64,000 nucleotides of DNA from Flavobacteriia bacterium. GTDB lineage: Bacteria > Bacteroidota > Bacteroidia > Flavobacteriales_D > Crocinitomicaceae. Position numbers and translations under genes: made by a program. The stretch covers positions 2,980 through 66,979 of the forward strand of contig JBAWZN010000006.1 in assembly GCA_037143015.1 (NCBI GenBank). The letters are read 5' to 3'. Shown in pieces: positions 4,551-64,000 of the stretch; position 1 is the stretch's first letter; each line of letters begins with the position of its first letter. Below the pieces are notes generated by a model that did no database searches, was not told the origin of the DNA, and was given only the letters and a program-made list of their open reading frames with translations.

Positions 4551-5515
4551 ACGCGATGAATGATTTGTTTTGGTTTAAAACGACTTATGACATATTTCAC
4601 GGCAATTTCGAATCCACCGCGTGCATTGCTGGCCGGAACGAGTTTAGAAAAATTGACGTCGTAACTCATCCCACAATACAAGGGTCCTTTTTCGTAAGCA
4701 ATGTGGACAGATACAGCATCTTTGTTCCTCCACCACAGTCCGCCGTAAAAGTTAACTTTATCCCGTTTCGAAAAGACATAACGCGCAAGTCCACCGAGCA
4801 TCAACTCATGGTATTTTCCTTGTTTGCTGTATTGAAGACTAGGAAAAATTGTCCATTCATCATTGAGGGTGTAACTCGCTTTGGTGAAAATGTTCCAACG
4901 AACATCCCTTAATACGACTTGGTTGTAGAAGCCCTGATTTGGACGGTTGAGGTTGAAAACGGAAATCCCAGAATGAAATGACCATCGATCGGAAAACTGC
5001 CAATCGTCTACTAGACCGAGTCCTAAGGAAAAATTCGTTTTGGAATCACTTTGAAAAGATTCATTGCTCGGCGCATTTGAATTAAAAATGTAACCGTTGT
5101 ATTGATTGTCAAAATACAATGCGGACCAGTTGATTTGTCGGTAATTCAATCCGAAGTTCAAGCCCGGACGAAAGGTATGACTAGGTAAAATAGCGATATT
5201 GATTGGTCGATTGATGTTCGCCTGACATTCAACGGTGCGCAATTTACCATCGCCCACTTGATCGTGAAAAGCCAACAATCCGACACCCCAGCCTTTGTAA
5301 CGCGTATCTGCTGAAAAGGAATTGGTACTGAAGGGAACGGTCACACTGCGCCATTGATTTCGGTAATTCGCAATGAAACGAAGGTCTTCTTGAAACGCGC
5401 CTGCATTTCCAGGATTCTGAAAAAGTGGATTGTCGTTGAATTGCGTCCAATGGATATCCTGACCATACATCATGGAATGAACGAGGAATAGAAATATGAA
5501 CGTTAGGGACTTCAT
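4532..5515 (-). CDS. PorP/SprF family type IX secretion outer-membrane protein
   Basis: 327 aa, signal peptide ending YGQ, then the family-typical IHWTQFNDNPLFQNPGNAG start and beta-strand-rich remainder. It overlaps the downstream PorE-like gene by 19 bp. Confidence 0.75.
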   Translation of the reverse strand: MKSLTFIFLFLVHSMMYGQDIHWTQFNDNPLFQNPGNAGAFQEDLRFIANYRNQWRSVTVPFSTNSFSADTRYKGWGVGLLAFHDQVGDGKLRTVECQANINRPINIAILPSHTFRPGLNFGLNYRQINWSALYFDNQYNGYIFNSNAPSNESFQSDSKTNFSLGLGLVDDWQFSDRWSFHSGISVFNLNRPNQGFYNQVVLRDVRWNIFTKASYTLNDEWTIFPSLQYSKQGKYHELMLGGLARYVFSKRDKVNFYGGLWWRNKDAVSVHIAYEKGPLYCGMSYDVNFSKLVPASNARGGFEIAVKYVISRFKPKQIIHRVCPDFI

Positions 5516-5560
5516 TGCAAATTGGCTCTACGAATATACAAAATTTGCAACGCTAATCCA

Positions 5561-6247
5561 TTACGGATTGGTTAAGGAAACGGGTATGATTTTCCCATTC
5601 AAATAGCGCTGTGCATTCAAAGAGAAATCGGTAATGAATTCCGCCATTTGTGTTGGATTCAGTGGTGCTTGGTATCCAGGAAATGCTTGTTCTAACATTT
5701 CTGTTTGAACCGCACCCAAGCAAAGGCAGTTCATTTTGATGTTCGTCTCTTTGTATTCTTCGGCAAACAACTCTGTAAAAGAACAAAGTGCTGCTTTTGA
5801 AGTAGAATAGGCCGCTAATCCTGCGAACTTCATACTTCCTTGAAATCCACCCATGGAACTAATGTTAACGATGTGTGCACCTGCAGGATTCATCTTAGGC
5901 AGCAAACATTGAATGCTTTCCATCACGCCAATCACATTTATTTGATAGGAAGTACTGATGTCAGCATGTGTTAACTCAGGGAACGGTTTGTTTACTAAAA
6001 ATCCAGCATTTTCGATGAGGACATCGATCTGAGCTAACTGACCCATGATTAGCGCAAATTGTTCGTGCACATTTTCACTTAAGTCCAAGGAGAAACAATG
6101 CACATTTTCTTGATGGAAAGTAGCTTCCATGCGTTCGATGTTTCGCGCAAAAGCATAGACCTGATGTTCGGGATTCTGCGCATACCTTCTCACGAGTTCA
6201 GCCCCAATTCCGCGACTTGCGCCAATGACAAAAATGTGCTTACTCAT
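5561..6247 (-). CDS. SDR-family short-chain dehydrogenase/reductase
   Basis: Glycine-rich NAD(P) motif VIGASRGIGAEL, IENAG, catalytic YSTSK. The ATG at 6247 overlaps the TAA of the upstream gene (ATGAGTAA), so the TTG at 6259 in the ORF track is less likely. Confidence 0.8.
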   Translation of the reverse strand: MSKHIFVIGASRGIGAELVRRYAQNPEHQVYAFARNIERMEATFHQENVHCFSLDLSENVHEQFALIMGQLAQIDVLIENAGFLVNKPFPELTHADISTSYQINVIGVMESIQCLLPKMNPAGAHIVNISSMGGFQGSMKFAGLAAYSTSKAALCSFTELFAEEYKETNIKMNCLCLGAVQTEMLEQAFPGYQAPLNPTQMAEFITDFSLNAQRYLNGKIIPVSLTNP

Positions 6248-7313
6248 CGAAACTAACAATTAGTTCGTCACTCGTTGGAAACGCTTGACACGTTAAAATG
6301 TATCCTTGGTTTACTTCGTCATCCGTCAAAGAGAAATTGGAACGCATTTTTGCTGACCCCTTCAATACTTTCGCTCGGCAAGAGCAACAAACACCACCGC
6401 GACAAGAGTACGGAGCATCTAAGCCATTTTTTTCTGCTAAGTCAAGTACACTGTGTTGTTCTCCTTTCATGGTGAATGACGCCGTTTCTCCGTCAATCAT
6501 CACCTTCACTTTGCTTTCTCCCGAAAACGCAACCGTTTCAACAGGTGCGGTGGATTCAAGCGCTGTAAATAGCTCAATATGAATTTTATCTTTCGCTACG
6601 CCAAAGAAGGCCAAACACTCTTGCATTTCTTGAACGAGTCCGGTAGGTCCACAGATGTAAAAAGCATCCGCTTGCAACAAGCTCAAATTCGCTTTGAGTT
6701 TTTCTGTGAAGCTATCTTTTGTGATTCTTCCAGATGTATATCCTTCGCGTTCTTCTTGACTTAAAAAATGAGTGCAATGAACGTTCGATAAGGATCCTAG
6801 TTCAGATTCGAAAAGAATGGAGTCCTTTTGTTTACTTCCGTAAAATAGGTGCATTTGCGCAGCGCTGGACAAATGTTTAGCCATAGACAAAATTGGCGTA
6901 ATTCCACTTCCGGCAGCGATGCAGACGATGTTTTTTGCACTCGGACTCAACTTAAAGTTTCCTTCAGGTTTAGAAATCCAAATGGGGAAATCTGTCGTTT
7001 TTTGATTGTTCAGGAAGTTCGATACTAGTCCTTTATCGATGCGTTTTACACCAACTGCTAATGGTTCAGAAGGACCACTGCAAATGGAGTAGGAGCGACG
7101 TTCCTTTTTCTCGTTGACAATAACTTCAAGGTTAATGTATTGTCCTGGAACGAAAGTAAATTCATTTTGAAGATTAGCTGGAAGTTGAAAAGAAACCTGA
7201 ACGGAATCTGAATTCAAATGCTTCACCTCTTGAATGGCAACTTCGTGGAATCCACGGCTCACATTTTCAGTAGCCGGCTTTTCACTTTTTTTAAATCGGT
7301 CAAATAATCCCAT
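6240..7313 (-). CDS. PaaE-like oxygenase reductase, second tandem paralog (FNR-type FAD/NAD domains + C-terminal plant-type 2Fe-2S)
   Basis: RRSYSICS flavin motif, GSGITP NAD motif, C-terminal CRGGVCCSCRAKV...LTCQ ferredoxin cluster. It starts 5 nt after the stop of the upstream paralog. Confidence 0.75.
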   Translation of the reverse strand: MGLFDRFKKSEKPATENVSRGFHEVAIQEVKHLNSDSVQVSFQLPANLQNEFTFVPGQYINLEVIVNEKKERRSYSICSGPSEPLAVGVKRIDKGLVSNFLNNQKTTDFPIWISKPEGNFKLSPSAKNIVCIAAGSGITPILSMAKHLSSAAQMHLFYGSKQKDSILFESELGSLSNVHCTHFLSQEEREGYTSGRITKDSFTEKLKANLSLLQADAFYICGPTGLVQEMQECLAFFGVAKDKIHIELFTALESTAPVETVAFSGESKVKVMIDGETASFTMKGEQHSVLDLAEKNGLDAPYSCRGGVCCSCRAKVLKGSAKMRSNFSLTDDEVNQGYILTCQAFPTSDELIVSFDE

Positions 7314-11092: not shown

Positions 11093-11419
11093 ATGAACGT
11101 TGAAAATACACAGTCACAGATGCGCAAAGGAATACTCGAGTATTGCATATTGAGCATTTTGGACAAAAAGGAGGCATATCCCTCCGAAATCTTGGAAAGA
11201 CTGGACTTGGCACAATTGAAAGTGGTAGAGGGAACGATTTATCCCTTGTTGACGCGCTTGAAAAACATGCAATTATTGGAATACCGCTGGGCGGAGTCAA
11301 CTTCAGGTCCACCAAGAAAATATTACACGATTACAGAAGAAGGAAAAGCATTTTTAAGCGAATTAGAACGCACATGGACGGAACTGCAACAAGCGGTGAG
11401 TCACATTACAACTTTATAA
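11093..11419 (+). CDS. PadR-family transcriptional regulator
   Basis: 108 aa; MRKGILEYCILSIL...YPSEILERL...GTIYPLLTRLKNMQLLEYRW is the PadR winged-helix signature. Confidence 0.85.
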   Translation: MNVENTQSQMRKGILEYCILSILDKKEAYPSEILERLDLAQLKVVEGTIYPLLTRLKNMQLLEYRWAESTSGPPRKYYTITEEGKAFLSELERTWTELQQAVSHITTL

Positions 11420-11429
11420 AACACAGATT

Positions 11430-12944
11430 ATGAACAAAACAGTTTCCATTCATTTACAAGGAGTTCCTTTTATTTTTGAGGAACAAGCGTATGATCGTTT
11501 GAATGCCTATTTGCAACAGTTAAAGCAAGTTCTTCAAAAGGAAGAGGGGAGTGATGAGATTCTACAGGACATTGAATTACGCATGGTTGAATTAATTCAG
11601 CAGCAATTAACCCCTTTTAAACAAGTGGTTGAGCTCGTTGTGATTGAGCAAATCATGGAGAAATTGGGACGGCCGGAGGATTTTTCCGATGACACCGCGA
11701 CGGCGAGCGAAACAACGTCCACAGTTCACGATGATTTGGTGGAAAAACGCTTATTCAGGGATGGAGATAGAGCGCTGATTGGCGGTGTTTGCGCTGGTGT
11801 TGCTGCCTACTTCAATGTGGATGTTATCATTATTCGTGCGATTTACGTCTTTACCTTTTTAACTTTTGGCATCGGATTTCTACTTTATATTGTGCTTTGG
11901 GCCATTATTCCACTTGCGAAAACAAGTAGCGATAAATTACGCATGAAGGGTCAGCATGTCAACATAGAAAACATGAAAACGGAGCTGGGAGATGCAGCCA
12001 ACCGCATCAAAAAGGGAGCGAAGGAATTAAAAGCGAATTCTGGAGTTCAATCAACCGTTGGGGGCGTACTTCGTGTCATTTCTGTAATCATAGGGATTTG
12101 GGCTTTGCTCTTTGGGACAGGTATTTTTGTCTTTGCCATTATTTTCTTCTTTGTTAATCCGGACATCATTCCAGCACAATTCAACGGACGATTCATGTCC
12201 TTCCAGGATTTCGGCGGATTGTTGTTTGAGTCCTCTTCCCACGAGTCCTGTTTCTATCTAGGAATCGCCTTGATTGCTATCGCTATTGTCGCACTAAGTT
12301 ACTTGTTCGGTATTCGACTCATCACGCAATTCAAAGCAACCTATTTAAAATTATTGATCGGCATTTTTGCTGTTACACTGGTAATTGGAGTGGTTCTGGT
12401 TTCATTTGGAGGAGTTCAAATTGGACGTTCAATGGCCATTTACGGGGAAGTGGAAAAAGAAATTGCGCTTATTCCTGGGAATGAATTGAACATTGAGAAA
12501 AAATCCATTGAAGGACAAATGATCGATGGATTTAAAATAAAAAGCAATGGCGATGAGGGAATCATTACCATTAAAAATGGACGTGTGTACCTTCGAGGAA
12601 TTGAGTTGGTGTATTCACAGTCGAGTGATTCATTGTTCCACCTCAAACAGGTAAATGACGCACAAGCTCGCACACATGAGTCCGCACTGAAAAAGGCGAG
12701 AAACATTCGCTGCAATTACCAAGTCAGTTCGAACAAAATAACTTTAGAAACGATGTATTCTTTTCCAACAAAGGATAAATTCCGTGATCAAAATGTGAAG
12801 TTCATGATTGCTGTGCCAATGGGCGGAAAGATCTTCTACGAGAAACAACAGGTCTATCCAAACATGATAGAAGAAAGCGACTCTCCAAACGAAACGTACC
12901 AACATGGATACATTTCAAGTGATGGTGAATATTCTAAATGGTAA
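11430..12944 (+). CDS. PspC-domain membrane protein
   Basis: PspC motif LFRDGDRALIGGVCAGVAAYFNVDVIIIRAIYV followed by several TM segments and a C-terminal extracytoplasmic domain. The pairing downstream of PadR is common in Bacteroidota. Confidence 0.75.
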   Translation: MNKTVSIHLQGVPFIFEEQAYDRLNAYLQQLKQVLQKEEGSDEILQDIELRMVELIQQQLTPFKQVVELVVIEQIMEKLGRPEDFSDDTATASETTSTVHDDLVEKRLFRDGDRALIGGVCAGVAAYFNVDVIIIRAIYVFTFLTFGIGFLLYIVLWAIIPLAKTSSDKLRMKGQHVNIENMKTELGDAANRIKKGAKELKANSGVQSTVGGVLRVISVIIGIWALLFGTGIFVFAIIFFFVNPDIIPAQFNGRFMSFQDFGGLLFESSSHESCFYLGIALIAIAIVALSYLFGIRLITQFKATYLKLLIGIFAVTLVIGVVLVSFGGVQIGRSMAIYGEVEKEIALIPGNELNIEKKSIEGQMIDGFKIKSNGDEGIITIKNGRVYLRGIELVYSQSSDSLFHLKQVNDAQARTHESALKKARNIRCNYQVSSNKITLETMYSFPTKDKFRDQNVKFMIAVPMGGKIFYEKQQVYPNMIEESDSPNETYQHGYISSDGEYSKW

Positions 12945-58567: not shown

Positions 58568-59308
58568 ATGCGTTTATACCTTTCTAAATCCGAATTTATC
58601 GAAACGAGTGAAGCAATTGATTTATCAATGTCACTTCAAGCCTCAACAGAAAACGTCAGAGCTTGGTATGTTGATCCGCCTCGAATGGAGACAGTTCGAG
58701 CAAATGGATTCATCGGAAGTATCAAAGAAGGTGGAAGTGTGAATTTTCGTGATGTATTTTTCAATCCACACGGACACGGGACACATACGGAATGTTGTGG
58801 ACACATTACGCAGGAAGTGTACGCGGTAAATGATGTTTTAAAGGAGTTTTTCTATCGGGCAACATTGATAACGGTAGATCCTGTTCAACTTGAAAATGGT
58901 GATTTTGTTGTTCAAGCGGCTCAAATCGCCCCATTTTTAAATAAGGACTTCAGTGAAGCGCTGCTCATTCGAACCTTGCCGAATAGTACAGATAAAAAAT
59001 CAATGAATTATTCTGGAACCAATCCGTGTTATTTGGACATTGAAATAGTGGACTTATTAAACGATTTTGGAGTAAAACATCTGTTGGTTGACCAACCATC
59101 TGTTGACCGCGAAGAGGATGGAGGGGCCTTGGCATTTCATCACGCATTTTGGAATGTGCCAGAAAAACCAAATTTTGAACGCACGATTACTGAATTAATC
59201 TATGTGCCGAATGACGTGGCTGATGGAAACTATATTCTTGAAATTCAACTTGCCGCATTTCACAACGATGCGAGTCCGAGTAGACCTGTTCTCTACAAAA
59301 TACAATAA
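58568..59308 (+). CDS. Putative cyclase / kynurenine (aryl)formamidase-family protein
   Basis: 246 aa. PHGHGTHTECCGH resembles the HxGTHxDxPxH metal motif of the cyclase family. No signal peptide. Confidence 0.7.
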   Translation: MRLYLSKSEFIETSEAIDLSMSLQASTENVRAWYVDPPRMETVRANGFIGSIKEGGSVNFRDVFFNPHGHGTHTECCGHITQEVYAVNDVLKEFFYRATLITVDPVQLENGDFVVQAAQIAPFLNKDFSEALLIRTLPNSTDKKSMNYSGTNPCYLDIEIVDLLNDFGVKHLLVDQPSVDREEDGGALAFHHAFWNVPEKPNFERTITELIYVPNDVADGNYILEIQLAAFHNDASPSRPVLYKIQ

Positions 59309-59310
59309 AA

Positions 59311-59328
59311 AAGGGCTTTTCAGCCCTT
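59311..59328. terminator. Hairpin after the cyclase gene (T-run only on the minus-strand side)
   Basis: AAGGGCT-TTTC-AGCCCTT. It is preceded by A5 on the plus strand (T5 after the hairpin when read on the minus strand). No T-run follows it on the plus strand. Confidence 0.5.
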
Positions 59329-59652
59329 CCTAGTAGTAGACAATAAAGTCTGAGTGGTACGATTTAAGCAATAAGGACAGGAGTTTCTTATATATATTCC
59401 CGAGGGACGTCGACAAAAACTATTAAACTCTTATCAAACTAGAAAATGAAACTGCCTCTCCAAGCAGCCTGTCAACTTCTATACATAAGAAAGATCCTGT
59501 TTCTCTCCTTATTTCATTTTAAAAATAACGAGGAAGTTTGGAACATGTATGTTCAAATGAATATCCTTCACCTCTAAATGAACATTGTGCCACTTTTTGT
59601 GAATATTTCAATTTGATCTTTAGAGAAATCGAAAGCAATTGTTTAACTGACA

Positions 59653-59682
59653 CAAAAAAAGACACATGATAGATGTGTCTTT
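59653..59682 (-). terminator. Intrinsic terminator after the YHYH gene
   Basis: AAAGACACAT-GATAG-ATGTGTCTTT (10-bp stem) followed on the minus strand by T5. Confidence 0.65.
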
Positions 59683-59704: not shown

Positions 59705-61063
59705 TTATGGAATAACAATTTTTTTCGATCCATTTTGTCCATTCACTTTGACGTAATAAATGCCTTTATATAAGGTATCTACATGGAAGTAAGCAATCGT
59801 ACTTCCTTGAACAATTTGTTGTGATTGGATGCGTTTTCCCAATGCGTCGTACAATTCAACGGTAAATGATTGATTTACCAACTCATTTACTTGAACCATG
59901 ATGATGTCATTACTTGGGTTTGGATACACTGTCCAGTCATTTTCTGATAATTCAGTGATTCCAGCAGATGACGTATAGTTTGTGACAGTCTCAGTGATAG
60001 AAGTCACTTTGGATGCTGTACGCACGCCATAAAACGTCGGGCCTACTACATAGGGATAAGCAGAATTCCATTCGCTATCTACTGTCGCAAAATAGCAATA
60101 GATTCCATTCGGATACTCTGGAGTCACGCAAACGCGTCCATTATGACTATCTAAATAATCTGCTTGTCCATTATGACTCACAAATTCATAATCTTCGCGG
60201 AAGTAACCTAACGGATAGGTTGTACTTACCACCGGACCATCCGGAACATCTGTTCCATCCGCCCAAACCGTGCGTGTGCTAATGTTACGTAACTGGTAAC
60301 CTGATTTTATACGCGTAATCCCACCTGTTCCATCGGCATTTTTATACCCATATGCTCCATAAATGGGAAATCCGTCATAGGCATATCCAATGATAGGCGA
60401 ATGTACCGTCGAGTCGATGACGTAAAGTCCATCGGCATCGTATAAGTCACACACATTTGAAATAACGGTTAAATCCAATTTAAACGCACTTGGATTTTGG
60501 TGGTGGTGGTAGTTACCCATTGCTGGATGTCCTTTGGAACAATCAAATCCTGCTTTTTCTGCAGGAATAGCATCACGGTTCCAAGACATGGCAGCCGTTG
60601 GTCCCCCAGGACACGGTGGATTTCCGGGTCCGCCGCAAAGCGCATTTGTAGTCGTATTCCATGCAACACCATCGCGGTAGTCAAATAAGGCTACTCCGTT
60701 TAAGAATATCCCAATGTTTCCACCTGATGTTGCTGTTGCCGTTCCGGTGTTTTGAGCTGGAATCAATGGCATTTTGAAAATCGCATTTTGACTCGTCGCC
60801 AAGGATGGATTACCATCCATAAATGGACCAGTGATATAGGATGGAACGCCTGTTGTGGAAACGTAAACCCAATTGTTTGAGTACTGAACCGTTTGAACAT
60901 TGGCTAACGTAGTTTCGTTGATTGGTGTTGAATTCCCTTGGACATAATGTCTTCCGGTAATACCTGTGGAGTTGATTAACCAATGTTCAATGGCTGGATT
61001 TAACTGTGCCATCGCTTGATTTCCAAAGCAAAGGAAAAGGATAAAGTGGATTGTTTTTTTCAT
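59705..61063 (-). CDS. YHYH-domain protein with T9SS C-terminal sorting domain
   Basis: 452 aa with a signal peptide. GHPAMGNYHHHQNPS (YHYH-type motif). C-terminal WTVYPNPSNDIIMVQV...GIYYVKVNGQNGSKKIVIP is a type-A CTD. Confidence 0.7.
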   Translation of the reverse strand: MKKTIHFILFLCFGNQAMAQLNPAIEHWLINSTGITGRHYVQGNSTPINETTLANVQTVQYSNNWVYVSTTGVPSYITGPFMDGNPSLATSQNAIFKMPLIPAQNTGTATATSGGNIGIFLNGVALFDYRDGVAWNTTTNALCGGPGNPPCPGGPTAAMSWNRDAIPAEKAGFDCSKGHPAMGNYHHHQNPSAFKLDLTVISNVCDLYDADGLYVIDSTVHSPIIGYAYDGFPIYGAYGYKNADGTGGITRIKSGYQLRNISTRTVWADGTDVPDGPVVSTTYPLGYFREDYEFVSHNGQADYLDSHNGRVCVTPEYPNGIYCYFATVDSEWNSAYPYVVGPTFYGVRTASKVTSITETVTNYTSSAGITELSENDWTVYPNPSNDIIMVQVNELVNQSFTVELYDALGKRIQSQQIVQGSTIAYFHVDTLYKGIYYVKVNGQNGSKKIVIP

Positions 61064-61084
61064 GGATCTTTTTAGGTTTAGACG

Positions 61085-62128
61085 TTAGTTCTTTTCAAAA
61101 CTTGCACTTCGCTCATTTTTAGGGTACTTGAAAAGGGGGTTAAATAGAAATGTTGGGTCACTCAGCGTTTTTAAAAAGGCGACTAGGTCTTTTTGTTCGC
61201 GGTCAGTCAATGGTCGATTTAAGGCGTTCAATTCTTTGCTTTTCAGGTTCACTGTAGCATGTAATTGGCTATAATGTGCAAGGACATCCTTTAAAAGTTT
61301 AAATCGGCCATCGTGCATATAAGGAAAACTAAATTCAATGTTTCGAAGGGTTGGAATTTTGAAAAGCAGTGAATCTTCATGACGATTGGTAATTCCCATG
61401 CGTCCATAGTCGGCTAACTTAGGATTCACCGAAAGTCCATTTGACTTGAATTCATGTCGTGTGAAAAGCGGTTCTTGGTGACAGGAAGCACAGTATTTTT
61501 CAAACAAGGCATAGCCTGCTTTTTCTTGTTCGTTGAAGACGGCTTCATGGGTTTTGACCTGATCGTATTTGGATTCCGCGGAAACAAGTCCGATGGTGAA
61601 ATTCGAAAGAGCCTTTAAAAGGAGGTCCGTGGTGATGATGCTATCCCCAAAAGCATGGTAAAAGCGTTTGCGGTAATAGGTAGAAGCGTTCAGTCGACTT
61701 AAAATTTCCTTTAGGGAATTATCCATTTCCTTGGCATGGGTGAGCGGATTGATGGCTTGCTTGTTTAATTGTCCGACACCACCATCCCAATGAAAGGATT
61801 TTTGCCACGCTAAATTGATCAGAACAGGTGAATTTCGTGTGCCAATTTCCCCATCGATTCCATGACTTAATGCGTGATCAATGTGGGTGAAGCCTGAATA
61901 CTGCAAATGGCAACTCGCACAGGAAATGGTGCTGTCTCGGGAGAGGTCAGGATCATAAAACAAGGTACGACCTAATTCAAATTTGTTTAAACTAATGGGA
62001 TTCGCTTCAAAGTCGTAAACGGGTTTCGGCCAGTGTTTAGGGTGGAAAAATGGGTGTCCGTTGTGCGTTGCACTGAAAATAAGCGCAACGAAAAGCAGCA
62101 ATCCGGATATGCGCAGCATGGACTTCAT
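61085..62128 (-). CDS. Di-haem cytochrome c peroxidase / MauG-family enzyme (MbnH-like)
   Basis: 347 aa with a signal peptide and two CxxCH motifs (CASCHLQ; CASCHQE). PTLRNIEFSFPYMHDG is typical of the CCP/MauG family. Confidence 0.8.
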   Translation of the reverse strand: MKSMLRISGLLLFVALIFSATHNGHPFFHPKHWPKPVYDFEANPISLNKFELGRTLFYDPDLSRDSTISCASCHLQYSGFTHIDHALSHGIDGEIGTRNSPVLINLAWQKSFHWDGGVGQLNKQAINPLTHAKEMDNSLKEILSRLNASTYYRKRFYHAFGDSIITTDLLLKALSNFTIGLVSAESKYDQVKTHEAVFNEQEKAGYALFEKYCASCHQEPLFTRHEFKSNGLSVNPKLADYGRMGITNRHEDSLLFKIPTLRNIEFSFPYMHDGRFKLLKDVLAHYSQLHATVNLKSKELNALNRPLTDREQKDLVAFLKTLSDPTFLFNPLFKYPKNERSASFEKN

Positions 62129-62775
62129 TTCGTGAAGAAATTACGTGCGATGAATTGACAATAGCTTTTCGCGAGTGGACTAGGAATCATGATGCGCTGG
62201 ACTTCTTCCAAATGAGCGACTTGTTCGAAGAAAGGTTTTATATCTAAAACGACTGTGTCTCCTTGAATTACTAGGGACATAGGAATCCTCGTTTCATGTG
62301 GTTTTCGGTATCCCCCCAAGTGAAATTCAAAGCTTTCATCCTCCAAAGGAATACGCGTGGATTTTCCGGTGCACTTGAATTGAATGTAACCGGAATTCCA
62401 TGCCCAGTACATTCCTTTTAGTGGATCCAAGTCGCCTTCAACGGATTCAGAAACGTGATAAGAACTATCCATGCCAAATTGAAAGGACATTGTTTCGTAT
62501 TCTTTGATGGGAAAATCAGTAAATAACGTTAAGGATTGTTCATTTGCCAAATCGATGAGGTGGGTTCCAAGTATATGATGTTGTCGGATTTGCTTTTGAA
62601 AGTGAAAATCGGACACATACATTTTCAATTCATCGAAGCGAATGGTATCTGTCCCTAGTTTGTACGCTTTTTCGAGTTGAAGGGCATCAGAACCCCACTG
62701 AAATTGCACATGTAATTGTCCATGAGCATGTTGGGCAAGAAAAAGAATGAGAAAAGTAAATTTCGCTCGTTTCAT
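62125..62775 (-). CDS. MbnP-family protein
   Basis: 216 aa with a signal peptide. LKMYVSDFHF and GMYWAWNSGYIQFKCTGK resemble conserved MbnP blocks. It has a 4-bp overlap with the MbnH-like gene, the canonical pairing. Confidence 0.6.
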   Translation of the reverse strand: MKRAKFTFLILFLAQHAHGQLHVQFQWGSDALQLEKAYKLGTDTIRFDELKMYVSDFHFQKQIRQHHILGTHLIDLANEQSLTLFTDFPIKEYETMSFQFGMDSSYHVSESVEGDLDPLKGMYWAWNSGYIQFKCTGKSTRIPLEDESFEFHLGGYRKPHETRIPMSLVIQGDTVVLDIKPFFEQVAHLEEVQRIMIPSPLAKSYCQFIARNFFTK

Positions 62776-63212
62776 GGTCTTGGACCCCGACCCGGTCGGT
62801 CGCTTTGTTCAATCATGCGGTGGACCACCTCTGCCAGTTTCTTTGCTTGTTGCGCATTGCAATGAGCTTTTACTCGAGTAAAGTGCTCGAAAGTACAGGC
62901 ATCAATTTTGGTTTGCAGCGCACCAATTTTTTGATAAAGCGCTTTGTTTTGAACCCCAGCATTTTTATCCAACTTGATTTGCGAGCGAAGTGTTTTTTGC
63001 TCCTCCAATAAGTCTCCTTTTTCAGCGAAATGTTGTTTAAACTCTGCATCAACCCATTCAGCTTCCTTTCCCTTCATTTTCAGAACGACACTTAACTTAG
63101 GTGGGTGGGGTGGATGTCCAGCATTTCTGCCTTTCATGAACTGCACCAAAATAATGGCATTCATGACAATTAGAATACCTAATAGAACATACAAAAGTCG
63201 GTTAGTTTTCAT
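62772..63212 (-). CDS. Spy/CpxP-like (periplasmic heavy-metal-sensor type) helical protein with N-terminal anchor
   Basis: 146 aa with one TM helix, a GHPPHPP His/Pro patch, and then a helical Lys/Gln-rich region. This is the usual third gene of Bacteroidota ECF triads. Confidence 0.45.
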   Translation of the reverse strand: MKTNRLLYVLLGILIVMNAIILVQFMKGRNAGHPPHPPKLSVVLKMKGKEAEWVDAEFKQHFAEKGDLLEEQKTLRSQIKLDKNAGVQNKALYQKIGALQTKIDACTFEHFTRVKAHCNAQQAKKLAEVVHRMIEQSDRPGRGPRP

Positions 63213-63218
63213 CGTTTG

Positions 63219-63461
63219 TTATATGGAAAGATTAAAGCCAAAATTAGCATATTGTGTTTCAAGTAGTTCTTCCTCCGTTAATTTTTCTTGTCGAACACTT
63301 AAATAGCTGAGGTTCACCACTACACATACGATGGTTGCAACAGCGAAGATTGTATTTCTTCTCTTCAATTTTTTCGCATGCATAGGTGCTTGTATGAGTT
63401 TGTCATGCAGCGTGTTTGAAACCTCTAGTTTTTGCTTGTGAAATGGATGTTCGTTCATCAT
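63219..63461 (-). CDS. Small single-TM protein (candidate anti-sigma factor)
   Basis: 80 aa with a central TM helix IFAVATIVCVVVNLSYL, positioned directly downstream of the ECF sigma gene. Confidence 0.35.
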   Translation of the reverse strand: MMNEHPFHKQKLEVSNTLHDKLIQAPMHAKKLKRRNTIFAVATIVCVVVNLSYLSVRQEKLTEEELLETQYANFGFNLSI

Positions 63462-63497
63462 ATTGTTTTAGATGTTATCATATTGAAAATCTTGCAG

Positions 63498-64000
63498 TTA
63501 AATCCAATTATTTTTCACGGACTCTTCTAATTGTCGTTTTAATTGTTGTTTTGCCCTGAAAATCAGTGATTCTATGGCGGATAAAGAAAGGTTCATTGAT
63601 TCGCTTATTTCTTTATAGCTGAACTCTTCCATGTGATGTAAGGTATAGGCAATGCGTTGATTTTCTGGCAAATGTTGTACGGCAGTCAAAAATGCCTTTG
63701 TTCGTTCTTTTTCCATCAATACTTGCGCTGGATTTTTTTCTAAATCTATTGTATGATCCATAAAATCCGTATCGATTCGTTGGTGAATGCCGAATCTTTT
63801 TTTTCGCTTCGCTTTTCGAATGTATTCCAAGCATTTGTTCAAGGTGATGCGATGTATCCATGTCGATAATTTCGCGTCCCCTTTGAATTTATGGATGGAC
63901 TGATAAATGGTGATAAAGACGTCTTGCGTGGCATCCTCAGCTTCTTCTTTGTTTTGTAGAATGTACCAACACATATTTAATACCTTTTTCTCATAGGTAA
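63498..64000 (-). CDS. ECF-type RNA polymerase sigma-70 factor (5' end outside window)
   Basis: Region 2 (EDATQDVFITIYQSIHKFKGDAKLSTWIHRITLN) and region 4 (ENQRIAYTLHHMEEFSYKEISESMNLSLSAIESLIFRAKQQL). The frame stays open upstream of the ATG at 63974 (...TYEKKVLN) to the window edge. Confidence 0.85.
   Translation of the reverse strand, partial: TYEKKVLNMCWYILQNKEEAEDATQDVFITIYQSIHKFKGDAKLSTWIHRITLNKCLEYIRKAKRKKRFGIHQRIDTDFMDHTIDLEKNPAQVLMEKERTKAFLTAVQHLPENQRIAYTLHHMEEFSYKEISESMNLSLSAIESLIFRAKQQLKRQLEESVKNNWI

Follow-up and report, generated by a model that had tools for sequence, protein, structure and literature searches.

Gene content and organization of the locus

The stretch of DNA analysed here (the window) comprises 64,000 nucleotides of contig JBAWZN010000006.1 (positions 2,980 to 66,979, assembly GCA_037143015.1) from a Flavobacteriia bacterium of the family Crocinitomicaceae, and its last part is occupied by a cassette of six genes, all on the minus strand, which encode in this order a sigma factor of the extracytoplasmic function (ECF) type, a small membrane protein, a membrane-anchored helical protein, an MbnP-like protein, an MbnH-like di-haem enzyme and a YHYH protein with a type IX secretion system (T9SS) C-terminal domain (CTD) (Table 1). 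An earlier note, made from the letters of this DNA alone, had delimited the six open reading frames (ORFs); reading of the ORFs in the window confirmed their coordinates and common strand, as well as the junctions, three of which are gaps (36, 6 and 21 nt) and two are overlaps of 4 bp. The sigma factor gene calls for a correction, being incomplete in the window: its frame meets no in-frame stop up to base 64000 and runs off the window end. In a public copy of the same contig (loci L001/L002) the full sigma factor has 189 amino acid residues (aa) and its start lies ~90 nt outside the window, so that the beginning of the operon and the first promoter motif (P1) are also located beyond the window end. 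Upstream of the sigma factor gene, the same contig carries a GNAT acetyltransferase gene and the T9SS translocon gene sprA. The strong terminator that the note had placed after the last gene is present, its hairpin reading AAAGACACAT-CTATC-ATGTGTCTTT on the minus strand, followed by the T-run TTTTTTG; relatives keep a hairpin with a T-run at this place, with differing stem sequences. Searches with profile hidden Markov models (HMMs), the check proposed in the note, gave matches to the sigma factor, MbnP, CCP_MauG, YHYH and T9SS CTD models.

Table 1. Features of the six-gene cassette and of its downstream neighbourhood (window coordinates).
Feature	Position	Strand	Basis or remarks
ECF sigma factor gene, 3' part	63498-64000	-	167 of 189 codons in window (ORF listed as 63498-63974+)
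P2, ECF-type promoter-like motif CAAGATTTTCAATATGATAACATCTA	63469-63494	-	Sigma/anti-sigma gap, 8 nt 5' of the 80-aa gene's ATG
80-aa single-pass membrane protein, putative CnrY-like anti-sigma factor	63219-63461	-	Position and architecture only
146-aa membrane-anchored periplasmic helical protein, CnrX/NccX-Spy-CpxP superfamily, proposed (metal) sensor	62772-63212	-	Homologue profile
MbnP-like periplasmic protein, 216 aa	62125-62775	-	PF20243, predicted fold; signal peptide ending AHG/Q
MbnH-like di-haem MauG-type enzyme, 347 aa	61085-62128	-	CCP_MauG, two CxxCH, Tyr286; signal peptide
P3, ECF-type promoter-like motif CAAGTTTTGAAAAGAACTAACGTCTA	61079-61104	-	Overlaps MbnH stop, 15 nt 5' of the YHYH ATG
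YHYH protein with T9SS type A CTD, 452 aa	59705-61063	-	PF14240, PF18962, TIGR04183
YHYH protein, signal peptide			aa 1-19 (AMA/Q)
YHYH protein, YHYH domain	60068-60778		aa 96-332
YHYH protein, CTD	59711-59929		aa 379-451
Intrinsic terminator at cassette end	59653-59682	-	10-bp stem, 5-nt loop, T-run
Non-coding element, ~214 nt	~59302-59515	-	L001 11549-11760; flanked by the YHYH terminator and the convergent cyclase gene
Cyclase-family gene	58568-59308	+	PF04199 (kynurenine formamidase family); convergent with the cassette

Conservation of gene order and inheritance as a block

A scan with an MbnP profile, covering one genome per GTDB species, yielded no fewer than 586 relatives, from which the 80 best loci were taken for the counts of gene order. 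Carriers among these best 80 loci belong to Crocinitomicaceae, other Flavobacteriales, Saprospiraceae, Chitinophagales, Cytophagales and Sphingobacteriales. In 75 of 76 loci the next gene after MbnP is MbnH, and in 64 of 72 the one after MbnH is YHYH; the sensor gene lies directly upstream of MbnP in 61-62 of 76 loci (HMM), and a sigma factor gene upstream in 57 of 71. Gene order is thus conserved across Bacteroidota, where its absence in relatives had been named beforehand as an outcome that would speak against the module, and since it recurs in dozens of species-level genomes from several orders of this phylum, the arrangement goes far beyond chance. The functional core of the cassette is MbnP-MbnH-YHYH, as ~20% of loci have no ECF triad. 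In loci picked by similarity to the YHYH protein alone, the MbnP and MbnH genes were found upstream in four of four cases, one of them with 2.6 kb of small genes inserted. The genes flanking the cassette are housekeeping genes that differ between families, which sets its edges at the sigma factor and YHYH genes.

Inheritance as a block was followed on metagenome contigs that carry the conserved non-coding element found downstream of the cassette (43 loci). In all 43, this element adjoins the cyclase and glyS genes. Directly upstream of it, 16 loci have the YHYH gene, 17 the GNAT gene (cassette absent) and two an unrelated 500-aa gene, with eight loci being uninformative; every YHYH-bearing locus that reaches far enough upstream shows the full cassette. 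This slot, either full or empty in close relatives, demonstrates that the six genes are gained or lost as a single block.

The MbnP-like and MbnH-like proteins

In Methylosinus, the di-haem enzyme MbnH converts a tryptophan of its partner MbnP to kynurenine, thereby creating a copper site (PMC11951088). The 216-aa protein of the cassette matched the Pfam MbnP model PF20243 over residues 20-186 (E 5.3e-31, 108.4 bits, cutoff 27), and in an alignment of 32 sequences with 30-91% identity the segment GMYWAWNSGY, which contains the WxW motif (W124-A-W126), is invariant, as are M122 and H152; the latter two residues are candidate copper ligands. The AlphaFold2 (AF2) model of the protein reached a predicted local distance difference test score (pLDDT) of 85.7 and a predicted template modelling score (pTM) of 0.80, with the WxW loop at low confidence. 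A Foldseek search with this model retrieved only chains of MbnP 7L6G (E 1e-5 to 2e-4, probability 1.0, TM-score 0.52-0.58), the next PDB match having E > 1. This exclusive match places the 216-aa protein, as far as a predicted fold can tell, as a short and distant member of the MbnP fold family.

The predicted first mature residue is Gln both in the MbnP-like protein (codon 20, 62716-62718) and in the YHYH protein (codon 20, 61004-61006) and is conserved in the alignments. It fits the 'Q-rule' of Bacteroidota, by which exported proteins carry an N-terminal pyroglutamate. Three loci (L057 at 4659-6682, L060 and L066) harbour a second MbnP-like/MbnH-like pair upstream of the sigma factor gene. 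The MbnP of this second pair, in loci that have no YHYH gene, consists of 341 aa, is fused to a T9SS CTD and shows SMYWGWQAGY, with WGW in place of WAW; partners of MbnH can thus be T9SS cargo.

The 347-aa protein matched CCP_MauG (PF03150, 8.3e-50) and gave a full-length alignment with MbnH 6E1C. It contains the haem-binding sequence CASCH twice, neither of the two CxxCH motifs varying among 76 orthologues. Its Tyr286, also invariant in the 76 orthologues, falls on the Tyr of the sequence DIYS in MbnH 6E1C and on the Met of the cytochrome c peroxidases (CCPs) 3o5c and 1iqc. From MauG and CCP structures, we take this position to be that of the distal ligand of the six-coordinate haem and the His/Tyr pair to be the MauG-type signature. 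One locus, L061, has an additional di-haem CCP/MauG gene (11106-12299) after the YHYH gene.

The YHYH protein

YHYH (PF14240) is a widespread domain in bacteria, phage tail proteins and diatoms, for which we know of no solved structure and no tested function. The cassette protein matched PF14240 with an E value of 4e-57 (193.7 bits, cutoff 25), and its CTD matched both Por_Secre_tail (PF18962, 4e-13) and TIGR04183 (6.6e-13, 48.4 bits, cutoff 23). With a Sec signal peptide, a type A CTD and sprA encoded on the same contig, the protein is predicted to be a T9SS type A cargo. Nine residues of the YHYH protein are invariant in its orthologues, namely W161, D174, H179, Y185, H186, H188, H221, D230 and D305. 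In the 28 most distant loci, the median identity to the proteins of the window is 67% for YHYH, 58% for MbnH, 44% for the sigma factor, 36% for MbnP and 25% for the sensor, and as the product of the most conserved gene of the cassette, the YHYH protein is likely its payload. Sequence and profile searches with the YHYH protein against PDB returned matches to the CTD only. YHYH domains found on phage tails have been predicted to be metal-dependent (Zn) hydrolases (PMC7824862). Loci L049 (9654-12940) and L050 (9790-12888) carry two tandem YHYH paralogues after the MbnH gene.

The regulatory triad

The sigma factor matched Sigma70_r2 (8.7e-15) and Sigma70_r4_2 (3.3e-17) in Pfam and the ECF superfamily model TIGR02937 (88.6 bits, cutoff 42.9). 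It consists of regions sigma-2 and sigma-4 only and is encoded together with a membrane regulator, as are ECF (group 4) sigma factors. The 80-aa protein had no family match in HMM scans of Pfam and NCBIfam; it is composed of ~37 aa on the cytoplasmic side, one transmembrane helix and ~25 aa on the periplasmic side. An ORF of 71-103 aa lies between the sigma factor and sensor genes in 59 of 60 triad loci, 55 of these 59 ORFs having a clear central hydrophobic helix, and the 80-aa protein is regarded, from position and architecture only, as a putative CnrY-like anti-sigma factor.

An exhaustive homologue search with the 146-aa protein yielded 209 relatives, 61 of which were used to build a sensor profile (A2). 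This profile matched NccX 4clv over the full length (E 1.8e-6, positions 2-143 versus residues 2-147), Spy 3oeo with 3.8e-6, and CnrX entries with values from 2e-4 (3zg1) to 9e-3; among the same 61 homologues, 33 matched PF13801 (Metal_resist) and 17 LTXXQ. As read from its sequence, the hydrophobic N-terminus of the 146-aa protein has no cleavage site and forms a membrane anchor, like that of NccX and CnrX and unlike the soluble Spy and CpxP. Of the 64 orthologues linked to the operon, 54 retain H36, 63 P38, 63 H61, 63 F111 and 56 C118.

In the CnrYXH system, the small anti-sigma factor releases the sigma factor when the periplasmic sensor binds metal (PMC6851896), and a context with an ECF sigma factor, an anti-sigma factor and a PF13801 protein at position +2 has been described for groups ECF281 and ECF290 (PMC7826278). 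The layout of the cassette, with a sigma factor, a small transmembrane protein (+1) and a PF13801-type protein (+2), leads to the three genes being read as its regulatory part, and by this analogy their products most likely constitute a triad of the CnrH/CnrY/CnrX type. The 146-aa protein had been seen in the earlier note as a Spy/CpxP-like chaperone acting beside MbnP and MbnH. The likeness itself holds in so far as the homologue profile matches Spy, NccX and CnrX, with no direct Pfam or NCBIfam match; the role of chaperone is improbable, as the layout just described favours a membrane-anchored sensor. The control by an ECF sigma factor that the note proposed for the MbnP/MbnH-like pair and YHYH agrees with the matched sigma domains and with the presence of the triad upstream in ~80% of loci.

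Loci L029, L032, L034, L035 and L046 have an ORF of 400 aa inserted between the sigma factor and small membrane protein genes (e.g., L046 4086-5288), the end of which resembles, by eye, a T9SS sorting domain (LYPNPTKN...). Locus L046 also carries ORFs of 235 aa and 431 aa (beta-propeller-like) between the sensor and MbnP genes.

An ECF-type promoter motif within the cassette

A bipartite motif was found just upstream of the sigma factor genes in many loci. The strict pattern CAAGWWT-N12-NCAWCWA had 27 matches on both strands of 2.13 Mb, compared with 0-3 (mean 0.9) in shuffled sequences. All matches were on the operon strand, and 26 of the 27 were located 7-24 nt before a gene start, that of the sigma factor in 15 cases, of the anti-sigma factor in four and of YHYH in seven. 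A position weight matrix gave 65 matches versus 3-10 in shuffles, of which, according to script labels, 32 precede a sigma factor gene, eight an anti-sigma gene and 17 a YHYH gene; in all, the sigma factor gene is preceded by the motif in 32-35 loci. With the relaxed pattern CAAGWWT-N13-CRTCWA, exactly two matches were obtained in the 64-kb window, versus 0.07 expected, and both are inside the cluster (P2 and P3); the motif before the window's own sigma factor gene (P1) is situated at L001 6964-6989. Motifs of the P2 type occupy the same place in relatives, and the YHYH-proximal motif is fully intergenic in some loci (L040, L055, L067), and is therefore not a by-product of the coding sequence of MbnH. 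In independent metagenome loci, five of six motif matches were at the expected positions.

The core GCAAGTT-N16-TCTA presumably corresponds to a promoter of the ECF kind, as it resembles the consensus of Escherichia coli sigmaE, GGAACTT-N16-TCAAA. By its placement, the motif probably reflects autoregulation and a separate ECF promoter for YHYH. Because the same motif precedes the sigma factor, anti-sigma factor and YHYH genes, the cassette is probably not one simple transcription unit. Accordingly, the single operon initially proposed is borne out as a same-strand cassette of six genes closed by a terminator, to which additional promoters before the anti-sigma and YHYH genes have probably to be added.

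Downstream neighbourhood and the variable slot

The ~214-nt non-coding element downstream of the cassette is near-invariant across genomes whose proteins share only 55-90% identity. It ends in a hairpin with a T-run (59308-59331), and its consensus fold comprises a closing helix of ~25 bp, with compensatory changes at nine pairs, and two inner hairpins with invariant loops. No credible Rfam match was found at E ≤ 1, the two sub-threshold ones (E 0.36 and 0.76) being far below gathering, and the element is neither a tRNA nor a tmRNA; it is a candidate for an unknown small RNA (sRNA) of Crocinitomicaceae. Just 5' of it on the minus strand (~59520-59630), the sequence ATATTCA(Y) occurs in three conserved copies at distances of ~21 nt, accompanied by a TAnnTTTA box, an arrangement that resembles a promoter at which the binding site of a regulator is repeated. 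The sRNA-like element was considered as a member of the cassette and rejected, since it stays in place when the cassette is absent. The cyclase gene was rejected as a partner in kynurenine chemistry, as it is on the opposite strand and its product has no signal peptide; it likewise stays when the cassette is absent and is missing from the loci of other families. The adjacency of sprA and the GNAT gene, which is different in the loci of other families, was set aside as family-level synteny only.

The slot between the GNAT gene and the non-coding element is variable, being empty or filled with the six-gene cassette or with other contents (L090-L132, L004/L005). In L004 it holds two unknown genes together with MbnP-MbnH-YHYH, and in L099 and L108 those unknown genes occur without the trio. 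One of them encodes a 373-aa protein with a twin-arginine-like SRRRLLK signal, and the other a 500-aa protein with no Pfam match.

Proposed function and alternative explanations

The cassette is best read as a sensing switch, formed by the ECF triad, that drives an MbnP/MbnH maturation pair and an exported YHYH payload; the probability of this reading is put at about 0.5. A signal in the periplasm, which is most probably a metal ion, with copper as the most plausible candidate, would bind the sensor at His36, His61 and Cys118 and change its contact with the anti-sigma factor, whereby the sigma factor would be freed. The freed sigma factor would then read the GCAAGTT-N16-TCTA promoters before its own gene and before the anti-sigma and YHYH genes, so that the cassette would be transcribed and the expression of YHYH boosted. 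In the periplasm, MbnH, with H2O2, would oxidise a Trp of the WxW motif of MbnP to kynurenine and create a copper site. The YHYH protein would enter the periplasm by Sec, fold there and gain metal at its cluster of invariant His and Asp residues, possibly helped or buffered by MbnP, and T9SS would export it to the cell surface or medium, where it may act as a metalloenzyme or a metal-binding protein. We infer the link of the cassette to copper from homology only. A more specific version, in which YHYH would be copper-dependent or bear a Trp/Tyr-derived cofactor, with its site built by MbnP and MbnH before export and the process gated by a CnrX-like periplasmic copper sensor, is tentative and, on present evidence, rather doubtful.

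Several observations weigh against this interpretation. On the regulatory side, the 146-aa protein had no match in a direct HMM scan of Pfam and NCBIfam at E ≤ 0.1, and the CnrX ligands His42, His46, Glu63, His119 and Met123 are not kept in the sensor: H110 is the sole aligned position, corresponding to His119, and is His in only 36 of 64 orthologues. Judged from these residues, the protein has at best a sensor function of the CnrX type and is not a CnrX orthologue. In addition, ~20% of loci lack the ECF triad and have unrelated genes upstream, and only the Crocinitomicaceae-like clade showed the promoter motif, diverged sequences probably being read by the sigma factors that are more distant. 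As for the maturation pair, the MbnP-like protein reached only 29 bits with NCBIfam TIGR04052 MbnP_like_WxW (cutoff 140), in an alignment that covers just the WxW region (residues 88-155), which makes it a distant subfamily rather than the equivalog, and neither phmmer nor a profile aligned it with the sequence of 7L6G, even at E ≤ 10, which leaves the His/Met copper ligands of MbnP unmapped. The 347-aa protein scored 197.7 bits with TIGR04039 MbnH against a cutoff of 362.85, yet this was its best NCBIfam match. The AF2 model of the YHYH protein (45 sequences, 61-92% identity) was unusable (pLDDT 46, pTM 0.35), so that its metal site and activity rest on the conserved residues and on the published prediction of a Zn hydrolase. 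Finally, none of CopA/B/C/D, Sco, PCuAC, a multicopper oxidase or a TonB transporter adjoins the cluster in the loci examined.

Instead of serving MbnP, the di-haem enzyme might have YHYH as its substrate and install an oxidised Trp or Tyr cofactor in it in the periplasm, MbnP being a second substrate or an adaptor, in parallel with MauG, which acts on pre-methylamine dehydrogenase. The MbnH and YHYH genes adjoin each other in 64 of 72 loci and are the two most conserved ones, YHYH has the invariant W161 and many invariant Tyr and His residues, and T9SS cargo crosses the periplasm, where MbnH resides; the relatives in which a T9SS-type MbnP comes with an MbnH of its own, and the SACCP/MopE and CorB/CorA pairs, in which the modified kynurenine-bearing partner of a MauG-like enzyme ends at the surface or is secreted (PMC3621798), point in the same direction. 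The idea is nevertheless unlikely, as the canonical substrate, an MbnP with an invariant WxW motif, stands between the regulators and MbnH in 75 of 76 loci and by itself accounts for MbnH, and YHYH has no such motif. Similarly improbable is a module of envelope or oxidative stress, in which the triad would sense misfolding or peroxide, the 146-aa protein would be a Spy-like chaperone, MbnH would remove H2O2, and YHYH would be a co-regulated secreted hydrolase for surface remodelling or nutrient acquisition. Consistent with it, the sensor profile matches Spy nearly as well as NccX (3.8e-6 versus 1.8e-6), the protein of the window has no PF13801 match, the 347-aa protein is slightly closer in alignment to true peroxidases than to MbnH, and MbnH, as far as PMC11951088 and PMC11892367 relay the work that they cite, is treated as able to react with H2O2; YHYH domains of phage tails are predicted hydrolases (PMC7824862), and copper genes are absent nearby in the loci examined. 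It is at odds with the membrane anchor of the 146-aa protein, which is of the CnrX/NccX kind and not found in the soluble Spy and CpxP, with the His/His/Cys set that this protein keeps, with the constant pairing of MbnH with a WxW MbnP and with Tyr instead of Met at the ligand position of MbnH in 76 of 76 orthologues, the signature of MauG and MbnH and not of peroxidases.

A defence against copper excess, with a sensor that detects excess in the periplasm, a kynurenine-bearing MbnP that buffers it and a YHYH protein that carries copper out through T9SS, would suit the response of CnrX-type systems to metal excess (PMC6851896), the nature of the outputs, which are proteins of metal-binding type and not importers, the strong ECF-type promoter motif of YHYH itself and the accessory distribution of the cassette among close relatives, which is often that of resistance determinants. 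Stoichiometric export at the price of one 45-kDa protein per metal ion would, however, be costly and without precedent, no efflux pump is linked, and the extreme conservation of the whole YHYH domain speaks for an enzyme, or for specific binding, more than for a sink, so that little probability is assigned to it. Lastly, that the genes are adjacent through synteny without a shared function is very improbable: the whole region of Crocinitomicaceae (sprA, GNAT, cassette, sRNA, cyclase, glyS) is indeed syntenic, but the six genes stay together in families where all flanking genes differ, are gained and lost as a block, and share a promoter motif.

Should the more specific version hold, with the site of YHYH built by MbnP and MbnH before export, YHYH would be the first T9SS cargo with a pathway dedicated to loading its cofactor, and its domain would receive a first functional assignment. 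The cassette would also carry the signalling scheme of CnrYXH into another phylum and couple it to another output. The block-inherited link to MbnP and MbnH already provides the first testable functional hypothesis for YHYH, that of envelope copper or kynurenine chemistry. The cassette poses the question by which route cofactors reach T9SS cargo and also bears on the role of MbnP/MbnH pairs outside methanobactin operons, given that at least 586 species-level genomes of Bacteroidota carry the short MbnP subfamily. Being present in some and absent from other close freshwater relatives, the cassette may be a niche-specific trait.

Comparison with known systems

The components of the cassette are of known kinds, i.e., an ECF switch with a PF13801 sensor, an MbnP/MbnH pair and a T9SS cargo. 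New, as far as checked, is the whole combination, including the tight MbnP-MbnH-YHYH trio and the ECF promoter that YHYH appears to have of its own. The statement of the earlier note that it knew of no described system with such a composition still stands in the sense that no paper naming both YHYH and MbnP was found, the main bioinformatic studies of MbnP/MbnH being outside this search, so that a prior mention is possible.

The closest counterpart of the maturation pair is that of Methylosinus trichosporium OB3b (7L6G and 6E1C), in which a periplasmic partner with a WxW motif likewise adjoins a MauG-type di-haem enzyme and, according to the AF2 model of the 216-aa protein, has the same fold. 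The MbnP of the cassette is much shorter than its counterpart (216 versus ~290 aa) and ~14% identical to 7L6G in the structural alignment, and both MbnP and MbnH fall below the NCBIfam equivalog cutoffs. In contrast to the Methylosinus pair, neither a methanobactin operon nor a TonB-dependent transporter accompanies the cassette, in which the pair is framed by the ECF triad before it and the T9SS-type YHYH protein after it.

MopE/SACCP of Methylococcus capsulatus and CorA/CorB of Methylomicrobium album also pair the gene of a MauG-like enzyme with that of a surface-associated or secreted protein, which binds copper via kynurenine and expression responds to copper (PMC3621798, PMC11951088). Unlike these systems, the cassette combines a predicted T9SS export with a separate periplasmic MbnP, its YHYH protein has no detectable similarity to MopE or CorA, and copper for YHYH is hypothetical. 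The YHYH domains of phage tails and baseplates belong to the same domain family (PF14240), with a conserved His triad and an Asp predicted to bind metal (PMC7824862), whereas in the cassette the domain belongs to a separate bacterial protein that carries a T9SS CTD, is predicted to be secreted and is linked to MbnP and MbnH.

The regulatory part shares with CnrYXH and NccYXH of Cupriavidus (ECF291) an ECF sigma factor, a small single-pass protein as putative anti-sigma factor and a membrane-anchored four-helix sensor of the PF13801 family, together with the autoregulation implied by the promoter motif before the sigma factor gene. The order of the cassette, with the small transmembrane protein at +1 and the sensor at +2 of the sigma factor gene, is that of groups ECF281 and ECF290 (PMC7826278) and differs from the order of cnrYXH. 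The sensor keeps His36, His61 and Cys118 and, in part, His110 instead of the ligand set of CnrX, and the outputs of the cassette are MbnP, MbnH and YHYH, and not the resistance-nodulation-division (RND) efflux pump of CnrYXH.

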